From Candidatus Woesearchaeota archaeon (GTDB lineage: Archaea; Nanobdellota; Nanobdellia; SCGC-AAA011-G17; UBA489): a stretch of DNA of 64,000 nt. The notes below the pieces were generated by a model that saw only the letters and a program-made list of their open reading frames with translations, was not told the origin of the DNA and did no database searches. Position numbers and translations under genes: made by a program. The stretch is from contig CAYFOE010000003.1 of the NCBI GenBank assembly GCA_964344635.1, positions 24,389 through 88,388 of the forward strand. Reading direction: 5' to 3'. Of this stretch, positions 2,842 to 53,255 are shown piece after piece. Position 1 is the stretch's first letter; each line of letters opens with the position of its first letter.

Positions 2842-2885
2842 TTTCTTAAGGATTTAGAGGGCCTTACAATTATTTAAGACTTACC

Positions 2886-2933
2886 TGTTTGGCATTGTTT
2901 GGTATTGTTGTTCATTGTTGATGATTGTTGATG
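2886..2933. repeat. degenerate copy of the TGTTGAY heptanucleotide repeat in the 100-bp spacer between two minus-strand genes
   Basis: cattgtttggtattgttgttcattgttgatgattgttgatgaa. A 25-codon minus-strand ORF here reads MGNKGVHQQSSTMNNNTKQCQTGKS, resembling the GNDGVINNHQQST segment of the neighbouring gene. Confidence 0.55.
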
Positions 2934-2940
2934 AACCCCT

Positions 2941-3465
2941 TTATTTCCCATGGAACTCTTTAGAAATCTTATAGTACAAGCCCAGAAAAGCCTCTTTTTG
3001 AGGGTTAAGGCCTGAGGAAAGTAATTTCTTCGCCAAATCCTGCCCAACATCCTTGTTGGTGCCTTCAGGAGGCCTATAACAGATAATTCGACGCAAAGTC
3101 TTGTTTGCAACAAAGCCCTCATTGACCTGTAAGCATAGTTTTTGGCCAGTTTTAATGCTTTTCACATTATAATTATTGAGATTCACCATTAAATCGCCCT
3201 TAGAATAGTGCTGATCAACCTTTGAGAAACCATTTGCCAAGAGCAACTCATCAAACATAGCCCTCACAGTCTCTTTTGGACTCTGTTGAGCATTGTTGAC
3301 TGTTGATTGTTGATGATTGTTTAGCTCAATAACACGACCCAAATAAGCAGAAACCTTCTGTTTAGGATGCTTTTTAGACCTTTTACGGCGTTTCGTAAGA
3401 ACCAAATAAGCATACTTCCTAACATCTCCAGAAACATTCTTTCTTGTCTTAGTGCGTATATACAT
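2941..3465 (-). CDS. hypothetical protein with very basic N-terminus and a QQSTVNN repeat segment
   Basis: MYIRTKTRKNVSGDVRKYAYLVLTKRRKRSKKHPKQK is followed by LNNHQQSTVNNAQQS, encoded by the third heptanucleotide repeat. No family assigned. Confidence 0.45.
   Translation of the reverse strand: MYIRTKTRKNVSGDVRKYAYLVLTKRRKRSKKHPKQKVSAYLGRVIELNNHQQSTVNNAQQSPKETVRAMFDELLLANGFSKVDQHYSKGDLMVNLNNYNVKSIKTGQKLCLQVNEGFVANKTLRRIICYRPPEGTNKDVGQDLAKKLLSSGLNPQKEAFLGLYYKISKEFHGK
3284..3322. repeat. third TGTTGAY heptanucleotide repeat tract (about 3-4 units) inside the coding sequence of 2941-3465
   Basis: ctgttgagcattgttgactgttgattgttgatgattgttt, read directly. Confidence 0.65.
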
Positions 3466-4021: not shown

Positions 4022-5899
4022 TTAGATACTTTTGAACTTCCTCAAAATACTTTCCTTACCCTTCCACTCCAAAGCATGCTCCAAAACCTCCTTCAGAGTT
4101 TCAGCATGAATAATCTTAACCTTTCTCTTATTACTAGGACTCAAAATCACATCCTGAGCATTAGCCTTAGGAATAATTACAGTTTTAATACCAGCATGAA
4201 TTGCTGCCTCAATCTTTTGAGTAACCCCACCAACCGCTAAAACTTCCCCCCGAACAGACAGAGAACCAGTCATTGCAACATTCTGCTTTATAGGAATCTG
4301 TTTCAAAGCCGAAATAATAGCCGTTGCAACAGCAATCGAAGCAGAATCTCCTTCCACACCACCAGACTCAGAAGCAGTCTGCAAAAACTGAATAAAAATA
4401 TCATACTTCTCCTTAATATCCTCACCAAAATATTTCAAAATAATAGCCGAAACATTCTGTACCGCTTCCTTCGCTATCTCACCAAGCTTACCAGTCGCAA
4501 TAAAATCAGACCTCTTCCCACCAGGCGTAACCTCCGACTCAATAGGCAAAACCAAACCCGAAAGATAAGAATCAGAACCCATCACAGCAAGACCATTAAC
4601 ACGCCCAACCCTCGACCCACTAGTAACAATAACCTCATACTTCTTTTTATTCTCAATATACTTATCAACAATCTGTTGCTCCAAAGTTCTTGCAAAAGAC
4701 TTTGCCTTAATCACATGATCAGGCTCAACAAACTTAGAATTTTGTTCCAATGCCAAATCACCAGCAGCCCTCACCAAACCACCAAGCTCCCTCAAACGCA
4801 AAGTAAGCTTCTTAGAAGTACCAGAACGAATCCTAGACTCCTGAATAATCTCCTCCACAGCAGCCTTAGTAAAATGAGGAATCTTCTTATCCTTATTAAC
4901 TTCCTGAGCTACAAAAATAGCAATCCGCCTTTGATTCTCAAGAGTATCCTCCATCGTATGATTCATATTAATCTCATAACCATAACCCCTAATCCTAGAT
5001 CTCAACGCAGGATTCATCTTCTTAATCGTATCAGGAGTACCAGCCGCAACCAAAATAAAATCAGTAGGCACTTCCTCTGAACGCACCATCGCTCCAGAAG
5101 ACCTTTCTGACTGTCCAGTGATAGGATATTTCCTTTCCTGCATACAAGTAAGAATCTCTTGTTGTGCAACAGGATCCATATTCCCAATCTCATCAATAAA
5201 TAACACACCCTTGTTTGCCTTATGGATCATACCTGGCACCAACCGCTCATAAGCAGGCGTACCCAAACCACCAGATTGAAGAGGATCATGAAGAACATCA
5301 CCCAACAAAGCTCCCGCATGAGAACCAGTAGCATCAATAAAAGGCGCCTTTACCTTCTTTGAATTATCAATAAGAATCTTTGGAACCTTAGTTCCCTTCC
5401 TTGCCTTTTTATTAAGATTAAGGAACAAAATAAATATTGCAATAAACATCATAGAAGAAATCAACGACGCAGCCGCCATAATATCACCATACTGTTTCCT
5501 AACCCACCACGGAGAAAAAATAGAAATAGCAATCAAAATATAGAAAAAAATCATTTGACCCTTGAACTGTTTCATAGACTCAATCTTAGATTGTTGGACC
5601 TGCAACTTACCCTTACCTTTAGACATAACCCTAATCAAAGGATTATGCTCATCAGAAGGATTATCAAAAGACAAAACATCATCCAAATCACCATTAGGAA
5701 TTAATTCGGCCAAAGCCTGTCCCGTCAAAGATTTACCAGTACCCGGCTCACCAATCAACAAAACATTTCTCCTCTGCCTAGCAGCTTTCTTAATAATAGT
5801 AACAGCCTCTTCCTGGCCAATAATCTGATCAACAACAGAATCTTTAATAGAGATATCTTTAGTCGTTTTGAAATCTTTGAGAGTTTTGGAACTAACCAT
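4022..5899 (-). CDS. lonB: archaeal membrane-bound Lon protease (LonB): AAA+ domain with a transmembrane insertion plus S16 protease domain
   Basis: Walker [13 protein letters not shown]. Two hydrophobic helices are inserted in the ATPase domain ([16 protein letters not shown]...[11 protein letters not shown]). Walker B LFIDEIG. Protease domain has Ser-Lys dyad context [26 protein letters not shown]. Confidence 0.9.
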
Positions 5900-5924
5900 T
5901 TTAGATATGTAGAATGCTGAAAGA

Positions 5925-6188
5925 CTAAATTATGTCTTCTTCAGATACAACAACAAAGTCACCAATCGCGATTACAGATGAATAAGGAATTAACAAACTG
6001 TTATTTTGATCTCTCTCAAGATCCATCCCCTCTGTATAAGTTGTCGGATTCTTTAATATGATCTGCATTAATTCACCAGTTCTAACTTCAAAAGTAATGT
6101 TTCCAACTTCCCCAAACCTTTTACCAGTTTTAGTTACAACAGTCTTACCTAATAACTGCTTAGAATAGTTTTTTTCTTCCTCTGTCAT
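5925..6188 (-). CDS. PRC-barrel domain protein
   Basis: About 87 aa with [34 protein letters not shown], typical PRC-barrel shape. Confidence 0.5.
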
Positions 6189-6257
6189 TTTAGGTAATGT
6201 TAACCCTATATGGTATATAAAGCTTTTTGTGTGGTTTTTAAGTTGTAATAAAATTTA

Positions 6258-6884
6258 TCAATCTGAGACTAATTTATTGATAAACTCTGAAGGAAAAATA
6301 GAAAGCAGAGATATAGCCTTGATAGGAGGCTTTATTGAAACATCATTATTCTTGTAAGAATCCAAGAAAACAGGAAGCCTTTTTTGGTTAGGTAGATTCT
6401 GTAAGACATCTGAAACCGCTAAAGAAAATGCCATATCAACTTTATCTTGGTCAACATCATTTAGTAAATCCAAGATCTCTGACTTCTCAAAAGAAATATT
6501 TTCCGACAGAGTGATATTATCTGAAAGCAGGTTAGGAAATGAATCATTCGTGAATGTGAACACCTTGAAAAAACCTTGATCTGAGGAATTTTGATAATAA
6601 GTGTTTAGATCACCAGATTCAATGAAAAAAGTATCTGAATCTGAAAAATTAATTATCATAGTCGATTCTATGTTGTTATCTACCTTATAGAAGAATGCCG
6701 ATTGAGATGTTTCAAGATTTGAAAGACTTTTAGCATCAGAAATTATCAGAATAGTAGTCAATAATATGAATCCAAAGATCAACAATGAAAATATGAATAG
6801 AGTTTTGAGTATTTTTTTAACAACAAAAAACAAAATTAATAGAACAATTATTGAAACAATTGCAATTGTTGTAAGTATCTCCAT
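6258..6884 (-). CDS. hypothetical membrane-anchored protein (two N-terminal TM helices, extracytoplasmic Asn/Ser/Asp-rich domain)
   Basis: MEILTTIAIVSIIVLLILFFVV...LFIFSLLIFGFILLTTILII followed by a polar domain. Confidence 0.4.
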   Translation of the reverse strand: MEILTTIAIVSIIVLLILFFVVKKILKTLFIFSLLIFGFILLTTILIISDAKSLSNLETSQSAFFYKVDNNIESTMIINFSDSDTFFIESGDLNTYYQNSSDQGFFKVFTFTNDSFPNLLSDNITLSENISFEKSEILDLLNDVDQDKVDMAFSLAVSDVLQNLPNQKRLPVFLDSYKNNDVSIKPPIKAISLLSIFPSEFINKLVSD

Positions 6885-6959
6885 TGTTTAAACCTTGAAT
6901 TATTGATATAAATAGGTTGTTAATTCAAGATAAGTAAAAAATAATTGGGTAAACTAAAG

Positions 6960-6984
6960 ACCCCACACCAACATTTCGTATGGA
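6960..6984 (-). promoter_or_regulatory. origin recognition box (ORB), inverted orientation
   Basis: Reverse complement reads TCCAtacGAAAtgttggtgtGGGGt. This fits the archaeal ORB pattern TCCA-N3-GAAA-N9-GGGG. Confidence 0.6.
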
Positions 6985-7039
6985 AAAAAATATTTCGGAA
7001 AAAAACGTAAAACATACGAGTTACACTGTTTAAAGTTAA

Positions 7040-7200
7040 AATTAAAGAATTTTTATAAATTTTTTATTTTTTTATATTTTATTTATAAATTTTTTTATTA
7101 TTTATTATTTATTATTTAATTTATTTTTTTTATTATATATTTTTCAATTATTTATTTTTAGAATGCTGAAATATTTTTGGTTTTTTGATTTATTTTTTTA
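7040..7200. repeat. AT-rich duplex unwinding element with (TTTAT)n-like microsatellite between the two ORBs
   Basis: tttattatttattatttattatttaatttatttttttt and similar text, essentially devoid of G/C. Read directly. Confidence 0.6.
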
Positions 7201-7210
7201 TAAAAGAATA

Positions 7211-7236
7211 CTCCAGTGGAAACTATGGTGTGGGAG
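7211..7236 (+). promoter_or_regulatory. origin recognition box (ORB)
   Basis: cTCCAGTGGAAACtatggtgtGGGag. The TCCAGTGGAAAC core matches the canonical mini-ORB. It lies 55 bp upstream of the cdc6 start. Confidence 0.65.
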
Positions 7237-7290
7237 TTTCATATGATAGTATAGATATGCTTAAATAAAACATGAAATATTTTTGTAGTT

Positions 7291-8508
7291 ATGGCCGACG
7301 TTAAAGACTTTCTACGAGATTACGCAAAAAAAGAGGGTTTATTCAAAAATAAAAAAGTTCTACAATCAAATTACACACCAGAAAAAGTACCATACAGAGA
7401 AGACCAAATAAACATGTTAGCAGGCATACTCGCACCTTCCCTGCGTATGGAGCGGCCCAGCAACATATTTCTCTACGGAAAAACAGGCACAGGAAAGACA
7501 CTAGCAATAAAACATGTAATAGACCAAATAGACGAAGTTGCAAAAGAAAGCAAACTCAATCTAAAAATAGTCTACCTAAATTGTAAACTAAAAAGAGTTG
7601 CAGACACAGAATACAGACTAATAGCACAAATCTCAAGAGAACTAGGACAAGAAATACCACCAACAGGATTACCAACCGACGAAGTTTACAAAATATTCGT
7701 AAGACTAGTCGAAAAAGAAAAAATGCTACTTCTCTTAGTCTTAGACGAAATAGACGAAATCGTAAAAAACACAGGAGACAAAATATTATACAATCTAACA
7801 AGACTAAATGCTGAACTAGAAAACAGCGAAATCTCAATCGTAGGCGTAAGCAACGATCTAATGTTCATCGACCAAGTAGATCCAAGAGTTAAAAGCAGCC
7901 TAAGTGAAGAAGAACTAGTCTTTCCACCATACAACGCAATACAACTACAAAAAATATTGAAAGAAAGATCCCAAATCTCATTCGGAACAGAAGTAATTGG
8001 CGAAGGAGTCATTGAAAAATGTGCAGCATACGCAGCAAAAGAACACGGAGATGCAAGAAGAGCCTTAGAACTACTAAGAGTTGCAGGAGAACTAGCAGAA
8101 AGAAACAACTCAGATAAAATAGAAATCAAATTCATAGACCAAGCCGAAGAAAAAATAGAAAGAGACAGAGTCGTAGACATCGTATCAACACAACCAAAAC
8201 AATTCAAAATCACCCTATACAGTATCTTACAATTCACAAGTTTAGACAGTTCTAAAACGAATTCCCAAGGAATATACACCGGAGATATATATGAACTCTA
8301 CAAAGAGAATTGCATTAAATGCGGAACCAAACCCTTAACCCAAAGAAGGATTGGCGACATAATTGCCGAACTAGACATGCTCGGAATAATCAATGCAAGA
8401 GTCATAAGCAAAGGCCGATACGGCAGAACACGGAGTATCACACTAGGAATTCCTGAGAACATAGTGAAAAAAATACATGTTATGTTACAGGAAGGTCTAG
8501 GTATATGA
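7291..8508 (+). CDS. cdc6: Orc1/Cdc6 replication initiator
   Basis: Walker A LYGKTGTGKT. Walker B LLLVLDEIDE. C-terminal winged helix. Located next to the ORB/DUE origin as in Pyrococcus-type origins. Confidence 0.92.
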   Translation: MADVKDFLRDYAKKEGLFKNKKVLQSNYTPEKVPYREDQINMLAGILAPSLRMERPSNIFLYGKTGTGKTLAIKHVIDQIDEVAKESKLNLKIVYLNCKLKRVADTEYRLIAQISRELGQEIPPTGLPTDEVYKIFVRLVEKEKMLLLLVLDEIDEIVKNTGDKILYNLTRLNAELENSEISIVGVSNDLMFIDQVDPRVKSSLSEEELVFPPYNAIQLQKILKERSQISFGTEVIGEGVIEKCAAYAAKEHGDARRALELLRVAGELAERNNSDKIEIKFIDQAEEKIERDRVVDIVSTQPKQFKITLYSILQFTSLDSSKTNSQGIYTGDIYELYKENCIKCGTKPLTQRRIGDIIAELDMLGIINARVISKGRYGRTRSITLGIPENIVKKIHVMLQEGLGI

Positions 8509-10205
8509 AGAAAGAAATAAACAAAGAAATTCTAGAATCCTTTTTAGACAAAGGCTACCTGCTAGCCCCAGACATCGTAGAAGAAGACGGTTTTGATTCT
8601 GATTTCCTACACCTAGTCGATACCAAAATACTATCCAAAGACAAACCAGTAGTAATAGGTTCAGACATCTACAAAGGAGTCTCAAGAAAAGGAGTCTCAG
8701 GAATCAACTGGATAGAATTCGAAAAAAGCAGAGTACTACACGAAAAAGGAAAAACCAACAGACTATACTCCTCATTTCTAGAACTAATATTTGACGAACC
8801 ACAAGAAGAAAACCTAGGCTACTCCGTAGTTACCAAAAAAGAAGAACCAGTCAAACAAGTCGAAGAAGTTGTCGAAACCGTTAAAGAAGAAATCAAAGAA
8901 GTTCCACCCGACCAAACAAGCCTACTAAGTGTAGAATATCCACTGAAAGTACTAACTAACTACGAAGACGAATCCAAACTAAGAGAAGTCAAAGACTTTG
9001 TCTACCACTACAAAGAAAGATACGAATTCTTGAAAAACATTGTAGCAAAAAGACAAGAAATGCAAAATGTCATATCCATCAGCCGCGCATTCTCCAGAGA
9101 AAAGGGAGAAGAAGTCGCCCTCATCGGATTAATCTATGAAAAAAGACTAACCAAAAAAGGAAACACCATGATCAAACTAGAAGACACAACAGGCTCAATG
9201 AACGTTATCTTCGACTCAACAAAAACCAACGACCTAGATCTACTTTGTGAAGATGAACTAATCGGAGTTGTTGGAACAATGAGTAACGGCTTCCTATACG
9301 CAAGAGAAATAATATTCCCAGACATCCCAGCACAAACAGAAGTGAAAAAATTTAACGAAGACATCTGCGCAGCATTCATATCGGACGTACACATCGGAAG
9401 CGACCTATTTATCGAAGACAAAATGCTAGAACTAATAGCATGGCTAAACGGAAAACACGAAGACCCAAAAATGGTCGAACTAAGCAAAAAAGTCAAATTT
9501 TTGTTCATAACCGGAGACGTAGTAGACGGAGTAGGAATTTACCCCGGACAAGACAAAGAACTACACATCAAAAGCATCCAAGGCCAATACGATAGATGTG
9601 CCGAACTATTAGACATGATCAGAAAAGACATCAAAATTGTTCTATGCCCAGGAAACCACGATGCAAGAAGAATTGCAGAACCCCAACCCGCATTGGACAG
9701 ATATGCCGAATCCTTAAAGAAAATCGAGAACCTAACCTTAGTTTCAAACCCCTCAATGGTCAACGTGTTAGGAAACGAAACCTTTAGCGGATTCAACGTT
9801 TTAATGTATCATGGTTACAGTTATGACTACTACGCTGCAAACATAGAACCCATCGCCCAAAATGGAGGTTATGATCGCGGAGACCTAATCATGAAATTCT
9901 TATTACAAAAAAGACACCTAGCCCCCGTCCATACATCAACACTATTTGTTCCCAATGGCAAAGAAGACTACCTAGTCATCGACCAAATACCCGACATATT
10001 TGTATCAGGACACATACACAAAAGCAGTATATCCAAATACAAAGGAGTTACAAACATCGTAGGTTCTTGTTGGCAATACAAAACAGACTTCCAAGAAAGA
10101 GTCGGACACCACCCAGAATATTGTAAAGTCCCAATATTCAACTTTGGAACAGGAGAAGGAATGATCCTAGATTTCGCAGGAGAAGAAGAAAATGCAAATG
10201 AATGA
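8505..10205 (+). CDS. polD1: DNA polymerase D (Pol II) small subunit DP1, calcineurin-like phosphoesterase 3'-5' exonuclease
   Basis: OB-fold N-terminal part. Phosphoesterase motifs FISDVHIG, FLFITGDVVDG, GNHD and SGHIH. Start overlaps the cdc6 stop (ATGA). Confidence 0.9.
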   Translation: MKKEINKEILESFLDKGYLLAPDIVEEDGFDSDFLHLVDTKILSKDKPVVIGSDIYKGVSRKGVSGINWIEFEKSRVLHEKGKTNRLYSSFLELIFDEPQEENLGYSVVTKKEEPVKQVEEVVETVKEEIKEVPPDQTSLLSVEYPLKVLTNYEDESKLREVKDFVYHYKERYEFLKNIVAKRQEMQNVISISRAFSREKGEEVALIGLIYEKRLTKKGNTMIKLEDTTGSMNVIFDSTKTNDLDLLCEDELIGVVGTMSNGFLYAREIIFPDIPAQTEVKKFNEDICAAFISDVHIGSDLFIEDKMLELIAWLNGKHEDPKMVELSKKVKFLFITGDVVDGVGIYPGQDKELHIKSIQGQYDRCAELLDMIRKDIKIVLCPGNHDARRIAEPQPALDRYAESLKKIENLTLVSNPSMVNVLGNETFSGFNVLMYHGYSYDYYAANIEPIAQNGGYDRGDLIMKFLLQKRHLAPVHTSTLFVPNGKEDYLVIDQIPDIFVSGHIHKSSISKYKGVTNIVGSCWQYKTDFQERVGHHPEYCKVPIFNFGTGEGMILDFAGEEENANE

Positions 10206-13200
10206 AGACACCAACAAGTACTTCGAAGACATAAAATCCGATGTAAACATTGCATTCAGTCTAGCAAACAAATGTAGAGCCAAAAATCTAGACCCCGAAG
10301 ACCATGTAGAAATAATGCTAGCTAAAGACATGGCCGAAAGAGTAGTAGGTCTAATCTCAGTTGTAGCTCCCGAACTGAAAAAAACCAACCTAGTAGAACG
10401 AATCAAAGAACTAGAAGAAAAATTCGGAACACAAGACTGGAGAGTTGCCCTAACCGTAGCATTAGAAGTCGCCCAAGAAAAATTTGTCAAATTCGAAACA
10501 AAAGAACTGGCAATGGAAATAGGCCTGAGAGTTGGACTCTCCTACATCACTAACGGAGTTGTTTCTTCACCACTAGAAGGATTTACCAAACTACAAGTAA
10601 AAAAAAGAAGAGACGGAAAAGACTACCTTGCTTTGTTTTATTCCGGACCAATCAGAAGCGCAGGCGGAACCGCAAGTAGCGTTTCTTTACTAATTGGAGA
10701 TTACATCCGGAAAAATATGGGCTACGAACCCTACGATCCAGACGAAACAGAAATCAAAAGAATGTGCACAGAACTAACAGACTATCACGAAAGAGTAACC
10801 AACCTACAATACATGCCCTCAGATGCAGAAATCAGATACTTAGTTGAAAACATTCCCATCCAAATCGACGGAGACCCAAGCGAGAAAATAGAAGTCAGTA
10901 ATTACAAAGGACTAGACAGAGTTGAAACCAACCGTGTAAGAAACGGAGTTTGCCTAGTAACAGGCGAAGGCATTGCACAAAAAGCCCCAAAAGTATGGAA
11001 ACAACTCGCCAAATGGGGAATAGACCTAGGAATGGAACAATGGAATTTCCTAGGAGATTTCGTCAAACTCCAAAAAGAAATTAAAGCCAAAAAAGCAGTC
11101 AAAAAAGACGATGACAGTGACCAAAAACTAAAACCCGACTACACATTCATCAAAGATATCGTTGCAGGAAGGCCAGTGTTCAACCACCCATTAGCCGACG
11201 GAGGATTCAGACTAAGATATGGACGTTCAAGAATCTCAGGACTATCAGCAAACAGCATGAACCCTGCAACCATGGCAGTATTGAACGACTTCATCGCAAT
11301 AGGAACACAACTAAAAACCGAAAGACCAGGAAAAAGCACAATCATTTCTAACTGTGATTCCATCGAAGGACCAATCGTAAAATTAGTTGACGGCTCTGTC
11401 TTAAAATTAAACACCTTAGAAGAAGCTAACAAAGTCAAAAACAAAGTCGAAGAAGTAATCTATCTAGGAGACATGCTAATCTGTTACGGTGACTTCTTTG
11501 ACAGAGGCCACACCCTAATCCCTGCAGGGTATTGTGAAGAATGGTGGGCACAAGAAGTTCTAGAAGCTGCCGAGAAAAAACCCAAAGAAAACTTCGAAGA
11601 ACTATTAGAAAAACTAAAAGACGATTACTTCACAGAAATCCCATTCAAAGAAGCAATAAAAATCTCTGAACATTTTGGAGTTGCACTACATCCAAAATAT
11701 ACCTACAATTGGAAAGCAATAACCATCGAAGATCTAAAGATCTTAGACGAATGGATAAAAAATGGAAATTTCATCGAAGGTAAAGTTGTATTGCCCTTCC
11801 CTGAAGAAAAAATTAAAAGAACTTTGGAATTAGTAGGAATCCCACACAAAGTTGTAGGAAAAGAATACTTAGTAATCATGGGCCTAGATTCTGAATTAGT
11901 TAAATTCTATTTCGAAAACTTAGACCTTACAAAAAACAACATCTTAGAATGCTTCAACAAAAAATACCCCATAGCAGACAAGTTGGGAACGACAATCGGA
12001 GCAAGAATGGGACGTCCAGAAAAAGCAAAAATGAGAAAATTAACTGGAAGCCCCCACGTACTATTCCCCGTAGGCGATGAAGGTGGCAGATTAAGATCCT
12101 TCCAAAGCTCCCTAGACATTGGAAAAGTAAAAAACCAATTTCCAACCTATGTCTGCGAATGCGGAGAAAGTTCAGTCTATCCCAGCTGTCTAAGCTGTGG
12201 AAAAAAAGCAAAGAAAAAATATCAATGCAACATGTGCGGAGAACTAGGCGAAAAATGCAAACACGACTTTGTAAACGCCTATAAAAGTATGGATCTAGAC
12301 ATTATCAAATATTTCAACAATGCAACCAAACTTTCAGGAATGAACAGAAGTATGTTACCAGAACTGATCAAAGGCGTAAGAGGAACAAGCAACAAAGAAC
12401 ACATTCCTGAACATTTAGTTAAAGGTTTATTGAGAGCTAAAAATAAAATCTACGTTAACAAAGACGGAACCACCCGTTACGACATGACAGAAATGCCCAT
12501 CACACACTTCAAACCAAAAGAAATAGGAACCAGTGTCGAAATGCTAAAAAAACTAGGTTATCTAAAAGACGTAAAAGGCAGAGAGTTAACCAATGAAGAC
12601 CAAGTACTAGAACTAAAAATACAAGACGTCATATTACCCGCATCAAAAGAAGCAATGGATGAAGGCTGCGATGAAGTTTTCAAAAGAGTTGCACAATTCG
12701 TAGACGACCTATTAGTTAATGTCTACAGAGAAAAAAGCTTCTACAATGTAAAAGACAGAACAGACCTAGTTGGACAATTAGTTCTGGCTTTAGCCCCACA
12801 CATAAGTGCAGGCGCAGTAGGAAGAATAATCGGTTTCAGCAAGACCCAAGGAATTCTAGCTCACCCCTACTTCCATTGCATGGTTAGAAGAGACTGCGAT
12901 GGAGATGAACTATGCTGTTCACTATTATTAGACTCACTGATCAACTTTTCAAAACACTATCTGCCAGCACACAGAGGGAGCACACAAGACGCCCCACTAG
13001 TTTTAACAAGTGTTTTAACACCAACAGAAGTAGACGACATGGTATTCAACATGGACGTTTGTTGGAATTATCCACTAGAACTATACAGAGGAGCCCAAAA
13101 TTACCTCAAACCATGGGACATCAAAATAGACCAGCTAAATGGAAGACTGGGAACCGAAAAACAATTTTGTGACATGGGCTACACACATGAAACCACAGAC

Positions 13201-13650
13201 TTGAACAATGCAATTCCCTGCAGTGCATACAAATCTTTACCCACAATGGACGAAAAAGTTCAAGGCCAAATGGAAGTAGCAAAAAAAGTAAGGGCAGTGA
13301 AAACCGACGACGTTGCAAGACTAGTTATTGAAAGACACTTTATCAGAGACATAAAAGGAAATCTGAGAAAATTTAGCATGCAACAATTTAGGTGCGTAAA
13401 ATGTAACGAAAAATATAGACGCCCCCCAATAGCAGGCCATTGTATCGCACCCAAATGTTTCGGTAAAATCATATTCACAATCTCACAAGGAAGCATAGTA
13501 AAATACTTAGAACCAAGCCTAAAACTGGCAAGGGAATTCGAGATATCTCCATATTTACAAGAAACCCTAGACATCACCAAAATGAGAGTGGAAAGCATCT
13601 TCGGGAAAAACGAAGAAAAACAAGAAGGACTAACCACATTCTTCAAGTAA
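10192..13650 (+). CDS. polD2: DNA polymerase D (Pol II) large catalytic subunit DP2; no intein
   Basis: 1152 aa. N-terminal MQMNEDTNKYFEDIKSDVNIAFSLANKCRAKNLDPEDHVEIMLAKDMAERV is typical of DP2. Several Cys4 clusters (CECGESSVYPSCLSCG, CNMCGELGEKC, CVKCNEKYRRPPIAGHCIAPKC). Overlaps polD1 by 14 nt. Confidence 0.9.
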   Translation: MQMNEDTNKYFEDIKSDVNIAFSLANKCRAKNLDPEDHVEIMLAKDMAERVVGLISVVAPELKKTNLVERIKELEEKFGTQDWRVALTVALEVAQEKFVKFETKELAMEIGLRVGLSYITNGVVSSPLEGFTKLQVKKRRDGKDYLALFYSGPIRSAGGTASSVSLLIGDYIRKNMGYEPYDPDETEIKRMCTELTDYHERVTNLQYMPSDAEIRYLVENIPIQIDGDPSEKIEVSNYKGLDRVETNRVRNGVCLVTGEGIAQKAPKVWKQLAKWGIDLGMEQWNFLGDFVKLQKEIKAKKAVKKDDDSDQKLKPDYTFIKDIVAGRPVFNHPLADGGFRLRYGRSRISGLSANSMNPATMAVLNDFIAIGTQLKTERPGKSTIISNCDSIEGPIVKLVDGSVLKLNTLEEANKVKNKVEEVIYLGDMLICYGDFFDRGHTLIPAGYCEEWWAQEVLEAAEKKPKENFEELLEKLKDDYFTEIPFKEAIKISEHFGVALHPKYTYNWKAITIEDLKILDEWIKNGNFIEGKVVLPFPEEKIKRTLELVGIPHKVVGKEYLVIMGLDSELVKFYFENLDLTKNNILECFNKKYPIADKLGTTIGARMGRPEKAKMRKLTGSPHVLFPVGDEGGRLRSFQSSLDIGKVKNQFPTYVCECGESSVYPSCLSCGKKAKKKYQCNMCGELGEKCKHDFVNAYKSMDLDIIKYFNNATKLSGMNRSMLPELIKGVRGTSNKEHIPEHLVKGLLRAKNKIYVNKDGTTRYDMTEMPITHFKPKEIGTSVEMLKKLGYLKDVKGRELTNEDQVLELKIQDVILPASKEAMDEGCDEVFKRVAQFVDDLLVNVYREKSFYNVKDRTDLVGQLVLALAPHISAGAVGRIIGFSKTQGILAHPYFHCMVRRDCDGDELCCSLLLDSLINFSKHYLPAHRGSTQDAPLVLTSVLTPTEVDDMVFNMDVCWNYPLELYRGAQNYLKPWDIKIDQLNGRLGTEKQFCDMGYTHETTDLNNAIPCSAYKSLPTMDEKVQGQMEVAKKVRAVKTDDVARLVIERHFIRDIKGNLRKFSMQQFRCVKCNEKYRRPPIAGHCIAPKCFGKIIFTISQGSIVKYLEPSLKLAREFEISPYLQETLDITKMRVESIFGKNEEKQEGLTTFFK

Positions 13651-16972: not shown

Positions 16973-17644
16973 TTATTTATTTAAGCCTTTGTATTCATGG
17001 TTGATAGCATCAATTATTTTTTCTGCTTTTTTCTCACCCATCTTATCTATCTTCCTCAACTCCAACTCCGACGCAGAGAACACATTCCTAACAGTTTTGA
17101 ATTTCTTCAAAAGTGCCTTTGCCAAAGTAGGCCCCACACCCGGAAGAGCCTCAATCAAATACTCCTGTTGCTCCTTTAATGAAGCAGACTTCCTTTTAGG
17201 AATCAAAGAATAATGCCTTGCAGGCTTTTCCAACCTTTTTGCAATCACCGAGAGAAGAGACGCAGTATCCTTCGTAGTCTTAGTATAAACCACCGGAATC
17301 TGAAAGTCAATAGCAATCGAAGCCAACATGCCACGTATTGCATTAGGGTGGATGTTTCTCAAAGTATAAATATTCTGGTCCCCCTCAATTATCAAGAGCT
17401 GCTTGGTGAAATTCCTTTTCAGTTCTAACAACTGCCTCAGAATTCTTTTATCCATCATAGAATTAAGAAAATCCTCCTGAGTCTTTTTCTCAATCCCCAA
17501 CGCATGAACATTACCCTGCTGATCCCTAGTTTTCAAAATAAAATCAGCAACCTCCAACTGTTTTACCTGAGTATCAAATCCCTTTTTAGCAAGATCTACA
17601 ATTATCCTCGACCTTCTCTCCCTAGTATCAACGATTATCTTCAT
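16973..17644 (-). CDS. hef: Hef/XPF nuclease part: ERCC4 endonuclease domain plus C-terminal HhH2
   Basis: IIVDTRERRS...ADFILKTRD...LGIEKKTQEDFLNSMMDKRILRQL matches the ERCC4 (GDxnERKx3D) pattern. C-terminal LPGVGPTLAKALLKKF is an HhH. Start overlaps the end of the helicase ORF by 17 nt in another frame. Confidence 0.75.
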   Translation of the reverse strand: MKIIVDTRERRSRIIVDLAKKGFDTQVKQLEVADFILKTRDQQGNVHALGIEKKTQEDFLNSMMDKRILRQLLELKRNFTKQLLIIEGDQNIYTLRNIHPNAIRGMLASIAIDFQIPVVYTKTTKDTASLLSVIAKRLEKPARHYSLIPKRKSASLKEQQEYLIEALPGVGPTLAKALLKKFKTVRNVFSASELELRKIDKMGEKKAEKIIDAINHEYKGLNK

Positions 17645-19133
17645 TTTTGTTTAGATTCCTCTGCATATAACTCAACAAGTTATGCATTTTAACCTCCTTT
17701 CTTTTAGCAGTCCACAACATCGCCTCATCAAGAGTTTTTTCAGCAATTAAATTTATTATCTTACCCGGCTTAATTCTTGCAACCCTTCCGGATCTTTGAA
17801 TCTTTCTTATTTCAGAAGCAGTATGATCATAGAATATTGCCAAATCAAGAGACCCTATAGAAATACCCTCCTCCCCTATCGAAGTACAGATCAAAGTGTT
17901 AAACTCATTATTGTTAAACCTTTCAATAGTATCTAGTTGATCCTTCTGAGTGAAACCATCCTTTTGTCCAACCAACATTATAGGTTTGACCGAAGGAATC
18001 TCTTCTAAACCTTCCTTGATCTCCCTTACAGTAGACCGATAATTTGCAAAGATTATAGTCTTAGTTTTCGGATTTTTTTTAGTTTCTTCCCCTATAAGTT
18101 CAAGTAGCTTGTCATATTTAGGATGGTTTTGATTATCCTCAACCAATTCATTTGTCAATTGCACGGACTTTTCTATACCCTTATTATTCAGTAAATTTTT
18201 AGACGCCTTTGAAGTTTCATTCTTTAACTTTTCAAAATACTCCTTAAGTGCAAGAGGAGTTTGAGTTTCAATCAAGCCCAAAGCATGATTTGCCTTAATC
18301 ATTTCTGCAATTTCTGAAACCCCTCGGTAAGCCATATAGTCCCCCTTTTTGATCCGTTGTTGCAAGCTTTGCTGGTACAAGAGCAGATCAGTTTTATTTA
18401 TAGCAGAAGGCGGCTTAGTGAATCCATACTTTCTTAAATTTCCAGCCTTAATCTTATAGAACTGCCTTAACGCACCCTGAATTTTTTGAAACTTAGGAGG
18501 AAGCCGAACCTTGATATTCTCATTTTCCTTAACCTGAATGTGCTCCGATAAATCCTCATCAGTCTCAGTCCTCAACTCAACATTCTCAATAAACAAGTTA
18601 GAACAAACCTCTGAAACTTTTTCCTTAGTAGAACCAGGAGAAGCAGTTAGAGCCAGAATCAATCCATCTTCAGATTGTCGGTTATACTCCTTCGCAACAA
18701 TAGTATTTGCAAACTTTTCCTTAGACCTATGACACTCATCAACCACCAACAATGTAGTATTTTTTAATGAAACTCTTTCATTCTCCAAATCAAACTGAAT
18801 CGTCTGAGGAGTTGCAACTATCACCCTTGAATTCTGAAATATCTTGCTCCGTTCTTCAGGCTTGATGGTTCCAGTCAAAAGATTTATTTCTTCAGAAGGT
18901 ATCGAAGTACACTCTTTTACCTCCTCAGCAATCTGGGATGAAAGAGGTTTCGTAGGAGAAATAATCAAAATCTGCTTACCAGGATATTCATTCAGCCTCT
19001 TGATAAGAAGGCTTATCGCAAGCTTAGTTTTGCCAGTCCCAGTAGGTAGACAAACTAAAGTATTCTTGTTCGAAATCGTATTCAGGATATTTTCCTGATA
19101 TTTTCTTGGTTCGAAACCTTTTATTTGGTACAT
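17628..19133 (-). CDS. hef: Hef helicase part: SF2 DEAH-box helicase
   Basis: Motif I LVCLPTGTGKT. Motif II LLVVDECHRS. Motif III LTASPG. Motif VI QRSGRVAR. It ends where the nuclease ORF begins. Confidence 0.8.
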   Translation of the reverse strand: MYQIKGFEPRKYQENILNTISNKNTLVCLPTGTGKTKLAISLLIKRLNEYPGKQILIISPTKPLSSQIAEEVKECTSIPSEEINLLTGTIKPEERSKIFQNSRVIVATPQTIQFDLENERVSLKNTTLLVVDECHRSKEKFANTIVAKEYNRQSEDGLILALTASPGSTKEKVSEVCSNLFIENVELRTETDEDLSEHIQVKENENIKVRLPPKFQKIQGALRQFYKIKAGNLRKYGFTKPPSAINKTDLLLYQQSLQQRIKKGDYMAYRGVSEIAEMIKANHALGLIETQTPLALKEYFEKLKNETSKASKNLLNNKGIEKSVQLTNELVEDNQNHPKYDKLLELIGEETKKNPKTKTIIFANYRSTVREIKEGLEEIPSVKPIMLVGQKDGFTQKDQLDTIERFNNNEFNTLICTSIGEEGISIGSLDLAIFYDHTASEIRKIQRSGRVARIKPGKIINLIAEKTLDEAMLWTAKRKEVKMHNLLSYMQRNLNKNEDNR

Positions 19134-52328: not shown

Positions 52329-52645
52329 TGTTTTTCTTCAATTGATAACTTTTTAGATCTAACCACTGAAGACTTAACCTGGGACTTTTTACAAACCTTA
52401 CAAGTTAATCTGAAATCTGATTTCTTAGAAGTTTTAGCACCATACCTCTTCCATTTAGAGATTGCCCCCCTAGATTTCGAACCATGATTTCCAAAGCCAG
52501 CCATTCCCCTTCCTCTAGCTCCTAACCTGGAAAGAGATCCTCTCTTTAGAGTTCCTCTCTCTTTCTTTTTAGCAAGAGCTACAGTTTGCTCGGTTTGAGC
52601 CTTACACTTCGGACAAAATGTCTTTTTAGTCTTTGGTACTTTCAA
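52325..52645 (-). CDS. rpl44e: ribosomal protein L44e
   Basis: MKVPKTKKTFCPKCKAQTEQTV...CKVCKK zinc ribbon plus basic tail. Confidence 0.88.
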   Translation of the reverse strand: MKVPKTKKTFCPKCKAQTEQTVALAKKKERGTLKRGSLSRLGARGRGMAGFGNHGSKSRGAISKWKRYGAKTSKKSDFRLTCKVCKKSQVKSSVVRSKKLSIEEKH

Positions 52646-53255
52646 CTTTTATTTCCTCTGCCCTCTTCCTTTTTATCAAGAGTTCAGCTGTTTTCCTCGG
52701 TAAATATGAAACATCCTCCTGTTCGAAGGGACCATACGTATTGAGGTCATTGGCTACAAATTTTGGCACAGAATGCAAAAATCTAACCATTTTGTTTTTT
52801 TCAGATTGGCCATGCTGGCTTTTTATATCTTTTGGTGTCTCAATTTTCCTACTAACCTCTACCTTTTTACCCTTAAGCACATTATACAGGATTCCGTTCC
52901 TATAATCTCCAAAAGTCTCCAAAAGTTCATTGTAGAGCTTTTTCTCTTCCTTTAGCATATTTGTCCCGGATTCCTTGATGCCAGCCCTGGAAGACAGCAT
53001 TGCAAGATTTACGATCTTATTCTCCCGCTTTTCATAGAATTCCTTGATTATTTTTTTCGCATTGTCCAATTGGAGCTGAGTTTTTTTGGAATCAGAAGAA
53101 AAAATTGAATCCGAATCTTGTTCCGTTTTCAAGATTGCAGCCTTTTCTTGAAGATATTGAATAGTCTGATTAAAGAATTCTTCATCCAACTTCTGGAGCT
53201 CTTGGTTTATCTTTTCTTTCCTAAGTAGCTCAAAAAGTGTCTCAAATGTTAACAT
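52626..53255 (-). CDS. GINS complex subunit (Gins51-like)
   Basis: N-terminal A-domain pattern MLTFETLFELLRKEK...LDEEFFNQTIQYL. C-terminal B-domain VRFLHSVPKFVANDLNTYGPFEQEDVSYLPRKTAELLI. Confidence 0.5.
   Translation of the reverse strand: MLTFETLFELLRKEKINQELQKLDEEFFNQTIQYLQEKAAILKTEQDSDSIFSSDSKKTQLQLDNAKKIIKEFYEKRENKIVNLAMLSSRAGIKESGTNMLKEEKKLYNELLETFGDYRNGILYNVLKGKKVEVSRKIETPKDIKSQHGQSEKNKMVRFLHSVPKFVANDLNTYGPFEQEDVSYLPRKTAELLIKRKRAEEIKVESTKD

Follow-up and report, generated by a model that had tools for sequence, protein, structure and literature searches.

A conserved pair of inverted origin recognition boxes upstream of orc1/cdc6 marks a probable oriC1-type replication origin in a Woesearchaeal archaeon

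We propose that the region upstream of orc1/cdc6 in a 64-kb stretch of DNA (hereafter the window) from a metagenome contig of an uncultivated Woesearchaeal (DPANN, Nanoarchaeota) archaeon is a minimal chromosomal origin of the oriC1 type, Orc1-dependent and built on two origin recognition boxes (ORBs). Named homologues of its Cdc6 protein are assigned to Woesearchaeota, Nanoarchaeota or Nanoarchaeia. We assign this reading a probability of roughly 0.7. The sequence features of the site, their statistical excess, their conservation and the type of the neighbouring initiator were observed directly. The established plan of archaeal origins is an A/T-rich region flanked by ORBs beside cdc6 (PMC4010727; PMC4640148), and the structural and comparative evidence for such an arrangement here is as strong as sequence alone allows. 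We extended the window on the same contig, adding 9 kb on its left and 8 kb on its right, so that 81 kb of this genome were covered in total.

Two ORB matches lie upstream of the initiator gene in opposite orientation. The left box (ORB-L; 6960..6984, − strand) reads TCCATACGAAATGTTGGTGTGGGGT on the − strand, with its TCCA...GAAA core towards the A/T tract and its G-run outward, and where close relatives are aligned it is an invariant block. The right box (ORB-R; 7211..7236, + strand) has the sequence cTCCAGTGGAAACTATGGTGTGGGAG, direct reading of the + strand of the window at 7211-7236 giving cTCCAGTGGAAACtatggtgtGGGag; its core likewise points towards the A/T tract and its G-run in the direction of cdc6. 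Both marks of the boxes at oriC1-type origins are found here, namely repeats with a TCCA...GAAA core and a distal G-run, and their inversion, cores inward, around an A/T-rich region. We scored the boxes with a weight matrix made only from sequences upstream of cdc6 in other genomes (the relatives-only matrix), which gave 29.0 bits for ORB-L (6959-6986) and 28.9 bits for ORB-R. None of 300 first-order Markov randomisations of the 64-kb window produced a site of at least 23 bits, and only four sites in the 81 kb of genome exceeded 12 bits. The exact 12-mer TCCAGTGGAAAC occurs once in the 64-kb window. An inverted-repeat search also recovered the ORB pair (I7), as 23-nt arms that are 74% complementary and 227 nt apart, the seventh longest of 84 short inverted-repeat pairs reported for the region. 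Because A/T-rich DNA yields this many pairs, the inverted repeat alone is not significant, and we take the significance of the boxes to lie in their match to an independently derived ORB model. Direct reading, the inverted pair and scores of 29 bits each bear out the two opposed ORB matches that an earlier sequence-only reading of the window had placed at these positions.

We found no further boxes at the site. A search for additional ORB copies, which the sequence-only reading had suggested, yielded no extra ORBs or mini-ORBs beyond chance between the two boxes: the interval 6885-7290 contains six core matches with at most two mismatches, palindromic shadows of the two boxes included, compared with 4.1 ± 2.2 in shuffled sequences. 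There was no ORB cluster in dp1 (8505-10205), where no matrix match reached 12 bits. A degenerate ORB-like site inside cdc6 (7426..7453, − strand, at +160) scores 10.9 bits, and its counterpart in seven close relatives reaches 17-21 bits. It overlaps codons of a conserved LRME motif and may for that reason be a by-product of coding. Two further matrix matches, at 2603-2630 (18.8 bits) and 2929-2956 (23.0 bits), were considered as a second ORB cluster and rejected. They lie inside a repeat of about 40 nt that codes for one peptide, S[IM]GN[DK]GV with an NNHQQST-type linker behind it, in hypothetical proteins that are paralogues. Since both fall in the same coding repeat they are not independent; the chance expectation for one such match is about 0.04 per window, and coincidence is the probable source of the two matches.

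The spacer between the boxes (6985-7211, without strand) is 227 nt long, is 89.4% A/T and contains a putative duplex unwinding element. Its core (7036-7210) is 94.3% A/T, with 110 T and 55 A on the + strand. The richest 100 nt of the whole window, at 99% A/T, are found here (7038-7137), the next richest reaching 81%, as is its least stable 100-bp duplex (7054-7153), at −88.9 kcal/mol compared with a window mean of −126.2 (sd 6.2). The sequence-only reading had described about 220 bp of nearly pure A/T between the boxes, which agrees well with 227 nt at 89% A/T that include 100 nt at 99%. It had also described a (TTTAT)n periodicity, which we could not reproduce: Tandem Repeats Finder reported periods of 3, 7, 11, 15, 19, 26, 33 and 50 in the tract, and a period of 5 is not among them. 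The tract is low-complexity T-rich DNA with no (TTTAT)n array. The cdc6-sense strand of the tract is the T-rich one in the window and in 41 of 45 relatives. Binding of T-rich single strands by archaeal Orc1 has been reported (PMC8287685), and the conserved T-richness of the cdc6-sense strand would be compatible with such binding.

The gene that adjoins the site on the right, orc1/cdc6 (7291..8508, + strand), encodes an initiator of 405 aa and of the Orc1-1 type, with the Pfam domains Cdc6_C, Cdc6_lid and AAA_22. An adjoining initiator gene of the ORB-binding Orc1-1 clade (AAA+, lid and winged helix) is again what characterizes an oriC1-type origin. The best solved relative of the protein is 2QBY_A, Cdc6-1 of S. 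solfataricus (E 3.4e-104, aligned over residues 16-394), and the second best, at E 4.6e-92, is 2V1U_A, which bears the name 'cell division control protein 6 homolog' in its deposited record and which we take to be A. pernix ORC1. The proteins of 2QBY and 2V1U were reportedly crystallised on ORB DNA. An Orc1-type Walker A motif occurs only once in the 81 kb, in which we detected neither a second orc1 nor a dif site of the Thermococcales type. Downstream of the initiator gene, on the same strand, are the genes for the small subunit of PolD (DP1; 8505..10205, + strand; Pfam DNA_pol_E_B and Metallophos) and for its large subunit (DP2; 10192..13650, + strand; three DP2 Pfam domains with E down to 4e-112). 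The stop of cdc6 and the start of DP1 overlap in an ATGA at 8505-8508, DP1 and DP2 overlap by 14 nt at 10192-10205, and ORB-R ends 55 nt before this overlapping orc1/cdc6-DP1-DP2 string. The cdc6-polD1-polD2 string of the sequence-only reading, with its ATGA at 8505 and its 14-nt overlap at 10192, can thus be read directly, and the same holds for the position of the array immediately upstream of orc1/cdc6.

Between ORB-R and the initiator gene lies a TATA-like box, TTAAATAAAA (7261..7270, + strand), centred about 26 nt upstream of the cdc6 ATG. The TATA-like block GATATnnTTAAATAAAA is conserved in an alignment of seven loci, and judged by its position the box probably serves as promoter for a cdc6-polD transcript with a short leader or none. 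On the other side of the site the left flank is divergent (4022..6884), with genes on the − strand for a 208-aa hypothetical protein (6258-6884) and, as identified by Pfam, a PRC-barrel protein (5925-6188) and the LonB protease (4022-5899). Rfam and tRNA scans gave no match in the origin region. A sigma-70 promoter scan gave 4 matches compared with 4.7 expected, with a model that is uninformative for an archaeon.

We compared the site with 80 Woesearchaeal loci, taken from one genome per species, with Cdc6 identities of 61-90%. In the 520 nt upstream of cdc6 these loci have the seed TCCAN3GAAA at a density of 3.43 per kb; in the rest of their sequence the density is 0.067 per kb, a 51-fold difference. 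Among matrix matches of at least 16 bits, 170 of 179 fall within 500 nt upstream of the cdc6 ATG, and in all 80 relatives there was a single match of this strength downstream of cdc6 (L022, +2670). The layout of the window, in which an A/T-rich spacer separates a − strand box on its left from a + strand box on its right, was present in 58 of the 61 loci with enough upstream sequence. The spacer of the relatives has a median length of 252 nt (interquartile range 221-290) and is 83% A/T, compared with 68% for the loci. Their + strand box is held tightly at about −80 from the cdc6 ATG (about 30 of 54 + strand seed matches lie between −73 and −88), and their − strand box lies at −300 to −450; about a third of the relatives have a second + strand box near −155, and a few have a second − strand box. 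The clade consensus of the box is TTTCCATAnGAAATAAAGGTGTnnGnGT. In an alignment of the window with six close relatives, both boxes and the TATA-like block TTAAATAAAA stand out as conserved islands amid diverged A/T-rich sequence. The neighbouring genes are kept as well, with DP1 downstream of cdc6 in 78 of 78 relatives and DP2 in 72 of 74, and with LonB and PRC as divergent upstream neighbours in 44 of 49 and 53 of 57, respectively. The conserved order is LonB-PRC-origin-cdc6-DP1-DP2, and the genes point away from the site. Conservation in related genomes, a further mark of an oriC1-type origin, is therefore present in the element and extends over the entire order to which the archaeon belongs.

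Taking studied systems as a guide, we infer that the site works through Orc1 binding, MCM loading, melting and firing, together with promoter feedback. Orc1/Cdc6 produced from the downstream gene would bind one box on each side of the roughly 175-nt A/T tract, in which duplex stability is very low, each box offering a TCCAnnnGAAA core and a distal G-run. Given the inversion of the boxes and the inward direction of their cores, the initiators bound there would face one another across the tract; they could then load MCM, and the A/T tract would melt. About 25 nt separate ORB-R from the conserved TATA-like box of cdc6-DP1-DP2 downstream of it, so that the same binding event would probably feed back on the expression of initiator and polymerase. 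The fixed distance between ORB-R and the TATA-like box suggests that Orc1 bound at ORB-R also modulates cdc6-polD transcription. Cdc6 binding in vitro has been demonstrated for ORB2 of P. furiosus (PMC1904270).

Strand composition gave a negative result. A compositional switch, another characteristic of oriC1-type origins, was absent from the site in the window and in the relatives. Taken raw, the cumulative GC skew is lowest near 23-24 kb of the window. Since a block of − strand genes (17-24 kb) lies at this position, we read the minimum as an effect of gene orientation, dropped raw GC skew as an origin marker and used fourfold-degenerate sites instead. At these sites, + strand genes near cdc6 have A.57, C.24, G.04 and T.14. 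The − strand genes, which include LonB, XPF and a helicase (all Pfam-confirmed), have the mirror-image bias, with T.54-.59, G.15-.20, C.06-.08 and A.18-.21. Because the two gene sets mirror each other, the + strand is A/C-rich whatever the direction of the gene, and we conclude that the bias at fourfold sites is a true and very large strand bias.

This bias passes through the site unbroken. LonB, directly to the left of the origin, has fourfold-site values of.75 for (A−T)/(A+T) and.81 for (C−G)/(C+G), and cdc6, directly to the right, has.69 and.74. The sign of the bias is constant between −9 kb and +72 kb, and within the 81 kb there is neither a flip nor a step at 7.1 kb. By distance, the A/T bias is about.3 from −12 to 0 kb,.6 from 0 to 12 kb and about.2 beyond 50 kb. 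The sequence-only reading had named a GC-skew inflection as a check, and with the raw minimum at 23-24 kb and the fourfold bias continuous from −9 to +72 kb this check was negative at 7.1 kb. Its further suggestion, that the site gives an anchor for the chromosome, is unproven in the sense of a point at which leading and lagging strands switch, because the fourfold bias is unchanged there.

The relatives behave in the same way. For the 39 with enough fourfold sites on both flanks, the bias on the left is correlated with that on the right (r = +0.81 for A/T and +0.76 for G/C), and wherever the A/T bias is strong on both sides, as in 15 loci, the two signs agree. Taken relative to cdc6, the sign varies between lineages, and the window represents the minority type. 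Four relatives have 10-kb flanks: two of these show practically no A/T bias (L088 and L090), one shows a weak bias, and the fourth has a step of about 0.3 at the origin with the sign unchanged. The number of ORBs on each side showed no correlation with the direction of the bias in the relatives.

In bacteria, strand bias reflects the difference between leading and lagging strands (PMC7111523; PMC7143001). If the bias described here stems from such differences, replication forks would cross the site rather than diverge from it; as the bias has no switch at the site, bidirectional firing is unsupported by composition. Archaeal skews have been argued to come generally from gene orientation (preprint 10.1101/2023.11.15.567178), an explanation that fails for a bias shared alike by genes in either orientation. 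Skew methods are described as 'inoperative' in Thermococcales (PMC4640148), so a skew switch is not universal among validated archaeal origins. Possible readings of the bias are that the origin lies elsewhere, that replication is effectively one-directional or that the strand bias has some other origin. The composition test is negative, and its meaning in the Woesearchaeal clade is unclear.

These results bear on several alternatives to an active two-ORB origin. An accidental resemblance to ORBs in an A/T-rich divergent promoter region could draw on the 84 short inverted-repeat pairs of the region, among which the ORB pair is only the seventh longest and 74% complementary. We give this explanation almost no credence, since the window has the exact 12-mer only once, each box scores 29 bits while all random sites stayed below 23, and 80 other genomes show the seed 51-fold enriched and in a conserved position; enrichment, positional conservation and scores effectively rule it out. 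A more substantial alternative, which we nevertheless consider unlikely, is that the boxes are real Orc1/Cdc6 sites that mainly control the divergent promoters (cdc6-polD on the right and the 208-aa/PRC/LonB genes on the left), while replication mostly starts elsewhere or by other means such as recombination-dependent initiation. An operator of this kind, or a dormant origin, would fit the fixed distance that separates the + box from the TATA-like box and the cdc6 ATG (about 30 of 54 seeds at −73 to −88), and it would fit the constancy of the neutral-site strand bias across the site, seen in the window as well as in relatives. There are precedents: dormant archaeal origins have been described (PMC4595724), and in T. 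kodakarensis a conserved ORB origin can be dispensable, as can Cdc6 (PMC5663688). Pure regulation, however, needs no 100-nt tract of 99% A/T that is 6 sd less stable than the window mean, and the tract is kept A/T-rich and at about 250 nt in 58 of 61 relatives. Inverted boxes with cores facing the tract follow the plan of an origin, and a 99% A/T tract kept in length and composition between such boxes is hard to explain as a mere operator. The bias test is itself of uncertain meaning in the clade because L088 and L090, two of the four relatives with 10-kb flanks, are almost without A/T bias, and this too counts against the regulatory interpretation.

The site could also be an active origin from which replication is effectively one-directional, either because one fork is blocked at or near the origin or because replication is of a unidirectional theta type, so that one strand would be leading on both sides. 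We regard this as distinctly improbable. It would account for a strong bias of the same sign on both flanks with no step at the origin, for the similar behaviour of relatives and for the variation between lineages in the sign of the bias relative to cdc6. The same hypothesis has been put forward for small CPR bacterial genomes with a strand disparity over the whole chromosome (PMC7143001), and the conserved polarity of the A/T tract, T-rich on the cdc6-sense strand in 41 of 45 relatives, points in this direction as well. Yet the reading extends over 81 kb in one genome and over 9-21 kb in the others, and the bias may flip further out. The threefold weakening of the bias along the window is not predicted by simple unidirectional replication, the direction of the bias is uncorrelated with the number of boxes on each side, and no mechanism for one-sided firing is apparent in the symmetric two-box layout. 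A broader proposition is that, in the lineage of the window and in several relatives, leading and lagging strands do not change places at the deeply conserved ORB-DUE-ORB origin. We hold this to be doubtful on the present sequences. If true, it would mean either effectively one-directional replication from a canonical Orc1 origin or main replication from elsewhere with the origin kept for another role, and either alternative would be an unrecognised replication mode in DPANN archaea.

The preferred reading, a minimal two-ORB origin of the oriC1 type, places the site among known origins. The sequence-only reading had assigned it to the Pyrococcus type, and this holds for gene order and box sequence but not for the mini-ORB cluster or for a second ORB cluster in dp1, both of which are missing. 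As in Pyrococcus abyssi and P. furiosus oriC, the order is origin, cdc6, DP1 and DP2, and two long ORBs are inverted around A/T-rich DNA. Over CTCCAGTGGAAA, ORB-R shares 12 of 12 core bases with P. furiosus ORB2, and its G-run sits nine bases after GAAA as in P. furiosus ORB1 and ORB2 (PMC1904270). The ORB2 oligonucleotide used in gel shifts with Cdc6 reads CTCCAGTGGAAATGAAACTCTGGGGGAC when reverse-complemented (PMC1904270). The Pyrococcus oriC contains several mini-ORBs of 13 bp, two regions rich in A/T and a second cluster of ORBs within dp1 (PMC1904270), whereas the Woesearchaeal site has two boxes only, no excess of mini-ORBs and a dp1 without matches of at least 12 bits. The segment from the core to the G-run differs too, being TATGGTGT or GTTGGTGT in the Woesearchaeal boxes and GAAACTCT in Pyrococcus.

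The initiator is most similar to Cdc6-1 (Orc1-1; 2QBY), the protein of the oriC1/oriC2 system of Sulfolobus solfataricus, and the ORB core recognised in the Sulfolobus Orc1-1 clade is the same dyad-like TCCA...GGAA. Sulfolobus differs in having three origins and three Orc1/Cdc6 paralogues, compared with one Orc1 in 81 kb of the window genome. In the short ORB of the Sulfolobus type the G-run follows about four bases after the core, whereas it follows nine bases after the core in the Woesearchaeal boxes. Aeropyrum pernix oriC1 (2V1U) has four ORBs, compared with two at the Woesearchaeal locus. To our knowledge, crenarchaea lack PolD, and no PolD genes lie beside the Aeropyrum origin. What the A. 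pernix site does share is the arrangement of ORB repeats on the flanks of A/T-rich DNA (PMC1904270).

Haloarchaeal oriC1 resembles the Woesearchaeal site in its inverted ORBs with a terminal G-run beside cdc6, and this cdc6-adjacent haloarchaeal type has been argued to be ancestral for archaea (PMC4010727). Haloarchaea differ in their longer, halophile-specific G-string, in having several origins per chromosome and in a G+C-rich, that is opposite, composition. For the strand bias, the closest parallel is with CPR Microgenomates (Ch65 and relatives), likewise an uncultivated small-genome lineage with a strand bias that lacks the expected reversal (PMC7143001). These are bacteria with closed genomes in which G/C but not A/T is affected (PMC7143001), whereas both A/T and G/C are biased in the Woesearchaeal genome over 81 kb.

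In the literature that we searched there was no paper joining ORB or skew analysis with DPANN or Woesearchaeota, and no description of a DPANN origin at the level of binding sites. The largest study of complete genomes from the phylum, a 2026 preprint with 123 complete Woesearchaeales genomes, only rotates them to ORC1 (bioRxiv 10.64898/2026.05.13.725050). For specialists, the strand-bias anomaly is the surprising part and could be important: if the bias holds on complete genomes, how and where tiny archaeal chromosomes replicate becomes a directly testable question. The element itself is a further case of the well-known archaeal origin plan, and its usefulness lies in the clade-wide consensus and layout. 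With the consensus TTTCCATAnGAAATAAAGGTGTnnGnGT and the layout of a − box, about 250 nt of A/T and a + box at −80, the origin could be located in hundreds of Woesearchaeal genomes, and the consensus makes the boxes testable with recombinant Orc1. The layout also accounts for the many metagenome contigs of the Woesearchaeal group that end just upstream of cdc6.

Fourfold-degenerate sites revealed an extreme strand composition bias that is independent of gene direction throughout the window (1-64000) and its same-contig extensions to the left (L083, to about -9 kb) and right (L086, to about +72 kb). Near cdc6, the + strand carries A at.57 vs T at.14 and C at.24 vs G at.04 at these sites, and genes on the - strand have a composition that is the mirror image of that of + strand genes. 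Because the bias ignores gene direction, adjacent genes on opposite strands differ drastically in codon usage. The sign of the bias is constant across all 81 kb, and its magnitude peaks at 0-12 kb and is about threefold lower by 50-72 kb.

Strand bias was compared in Woesearchaeal relatives, using the 39 cdc6 loci with usable flanks among L003-L082. A bias of the same kind extends across the cdc6 locus in several of them, with its sign relative to cdc6 going either way; relatives as close as L003 (90% Cdc6 identity) are opposite in sign to the window. L011 is the most extreme case (47.6% A and 19.6% T on the + strand downstream of cdc6), and relatives with almost no bias include L088 and L090.

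Despite this lineage-variable sign of the flanking bias, the polarity of the A/T tract between the inverted ORBs is kept in nearly all relatives: in 41 of 45, the cdc6-sense strand of the homologous spacer is the T-rich one, as it is in the window tract at 7036-7210 (T 110, A 55). The correlation of tract polarity with the sign of that bias is no more than moderate (Spearman r = 0.45). Of the 80 related loci, 16 have a contig end less than 300 nt upstream of cdc6, within or bordering the A/T tract (L005, L006, L008, L020, L035-L037, L044, L046, L050, L051, L056, L058, L071, L077 and L080). Woesearchaeal MAGs seem to break repeatedly at the origin during assembly.

ORB-like sequences were also found in coding DNA. 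One such site lies within cdc6 itself (7426-7453, - strand); it is degenerate in the window, at 10.9 bits, and the same intragenic site, at +160, reaches 17-21 bits in the closest relatives (L003, L004, L005, L006, L008, L010 and L027). Since it overlaps the codons for the conserved LRME motif, the site may be coincidental. Further to the left, an ORB-like TCCATnGGAAATnAnGGGGT (18.8 and 23.0 bits) precedes two copies of a DNA repeat of about 40 nt (...GGGGTnCATCAACAATCATCAACA...) that occurs three times on the - strand, at 2591-2630, 2916-2956 and about 3283-3330. The repeat encodes a Q/N-rich linker (NNHQQSTVNN) in two hypothetical proteins that lie side by side (2197-2841 and 2941-3465). At copy B the peptide homologous to it is in another frame, where it forms the tail of ORF 2874-3122, and this points to a frameshifted gene. 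The Logan contig L085 seems to stop close to the repeat.

The block from about -3.8 kb to +3.5 kb (about 8000-15400 of L083) consists mostly of unannotated small genes, and its strand bias is weak or mixed, in contrast to its flanks. It is adjoined by a tyrosine recombinase gene of the Phage_integrase family (L083 16143-16982), and the block is possibly an integrated element. Among its products are two paralogous proteins of 213/214 aa (908-1549 and 2197-2841); both have a coiled-coil region and show a weak winged-helix/HTH match.

DNA-metabolism genes nearby in the window are Gins51 (52626-53255, - strand) and an XPF/ERCC4 nuclease with an adjoining DEAD/ResIII helicase (16973-19133, - strand). 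The relatives L088 and L089 also carry the nuclease-helicase pair, no more than about 10 kb downstream of polD, and in L091 the ERCC4 gene alone is visible up to the end of the locus.
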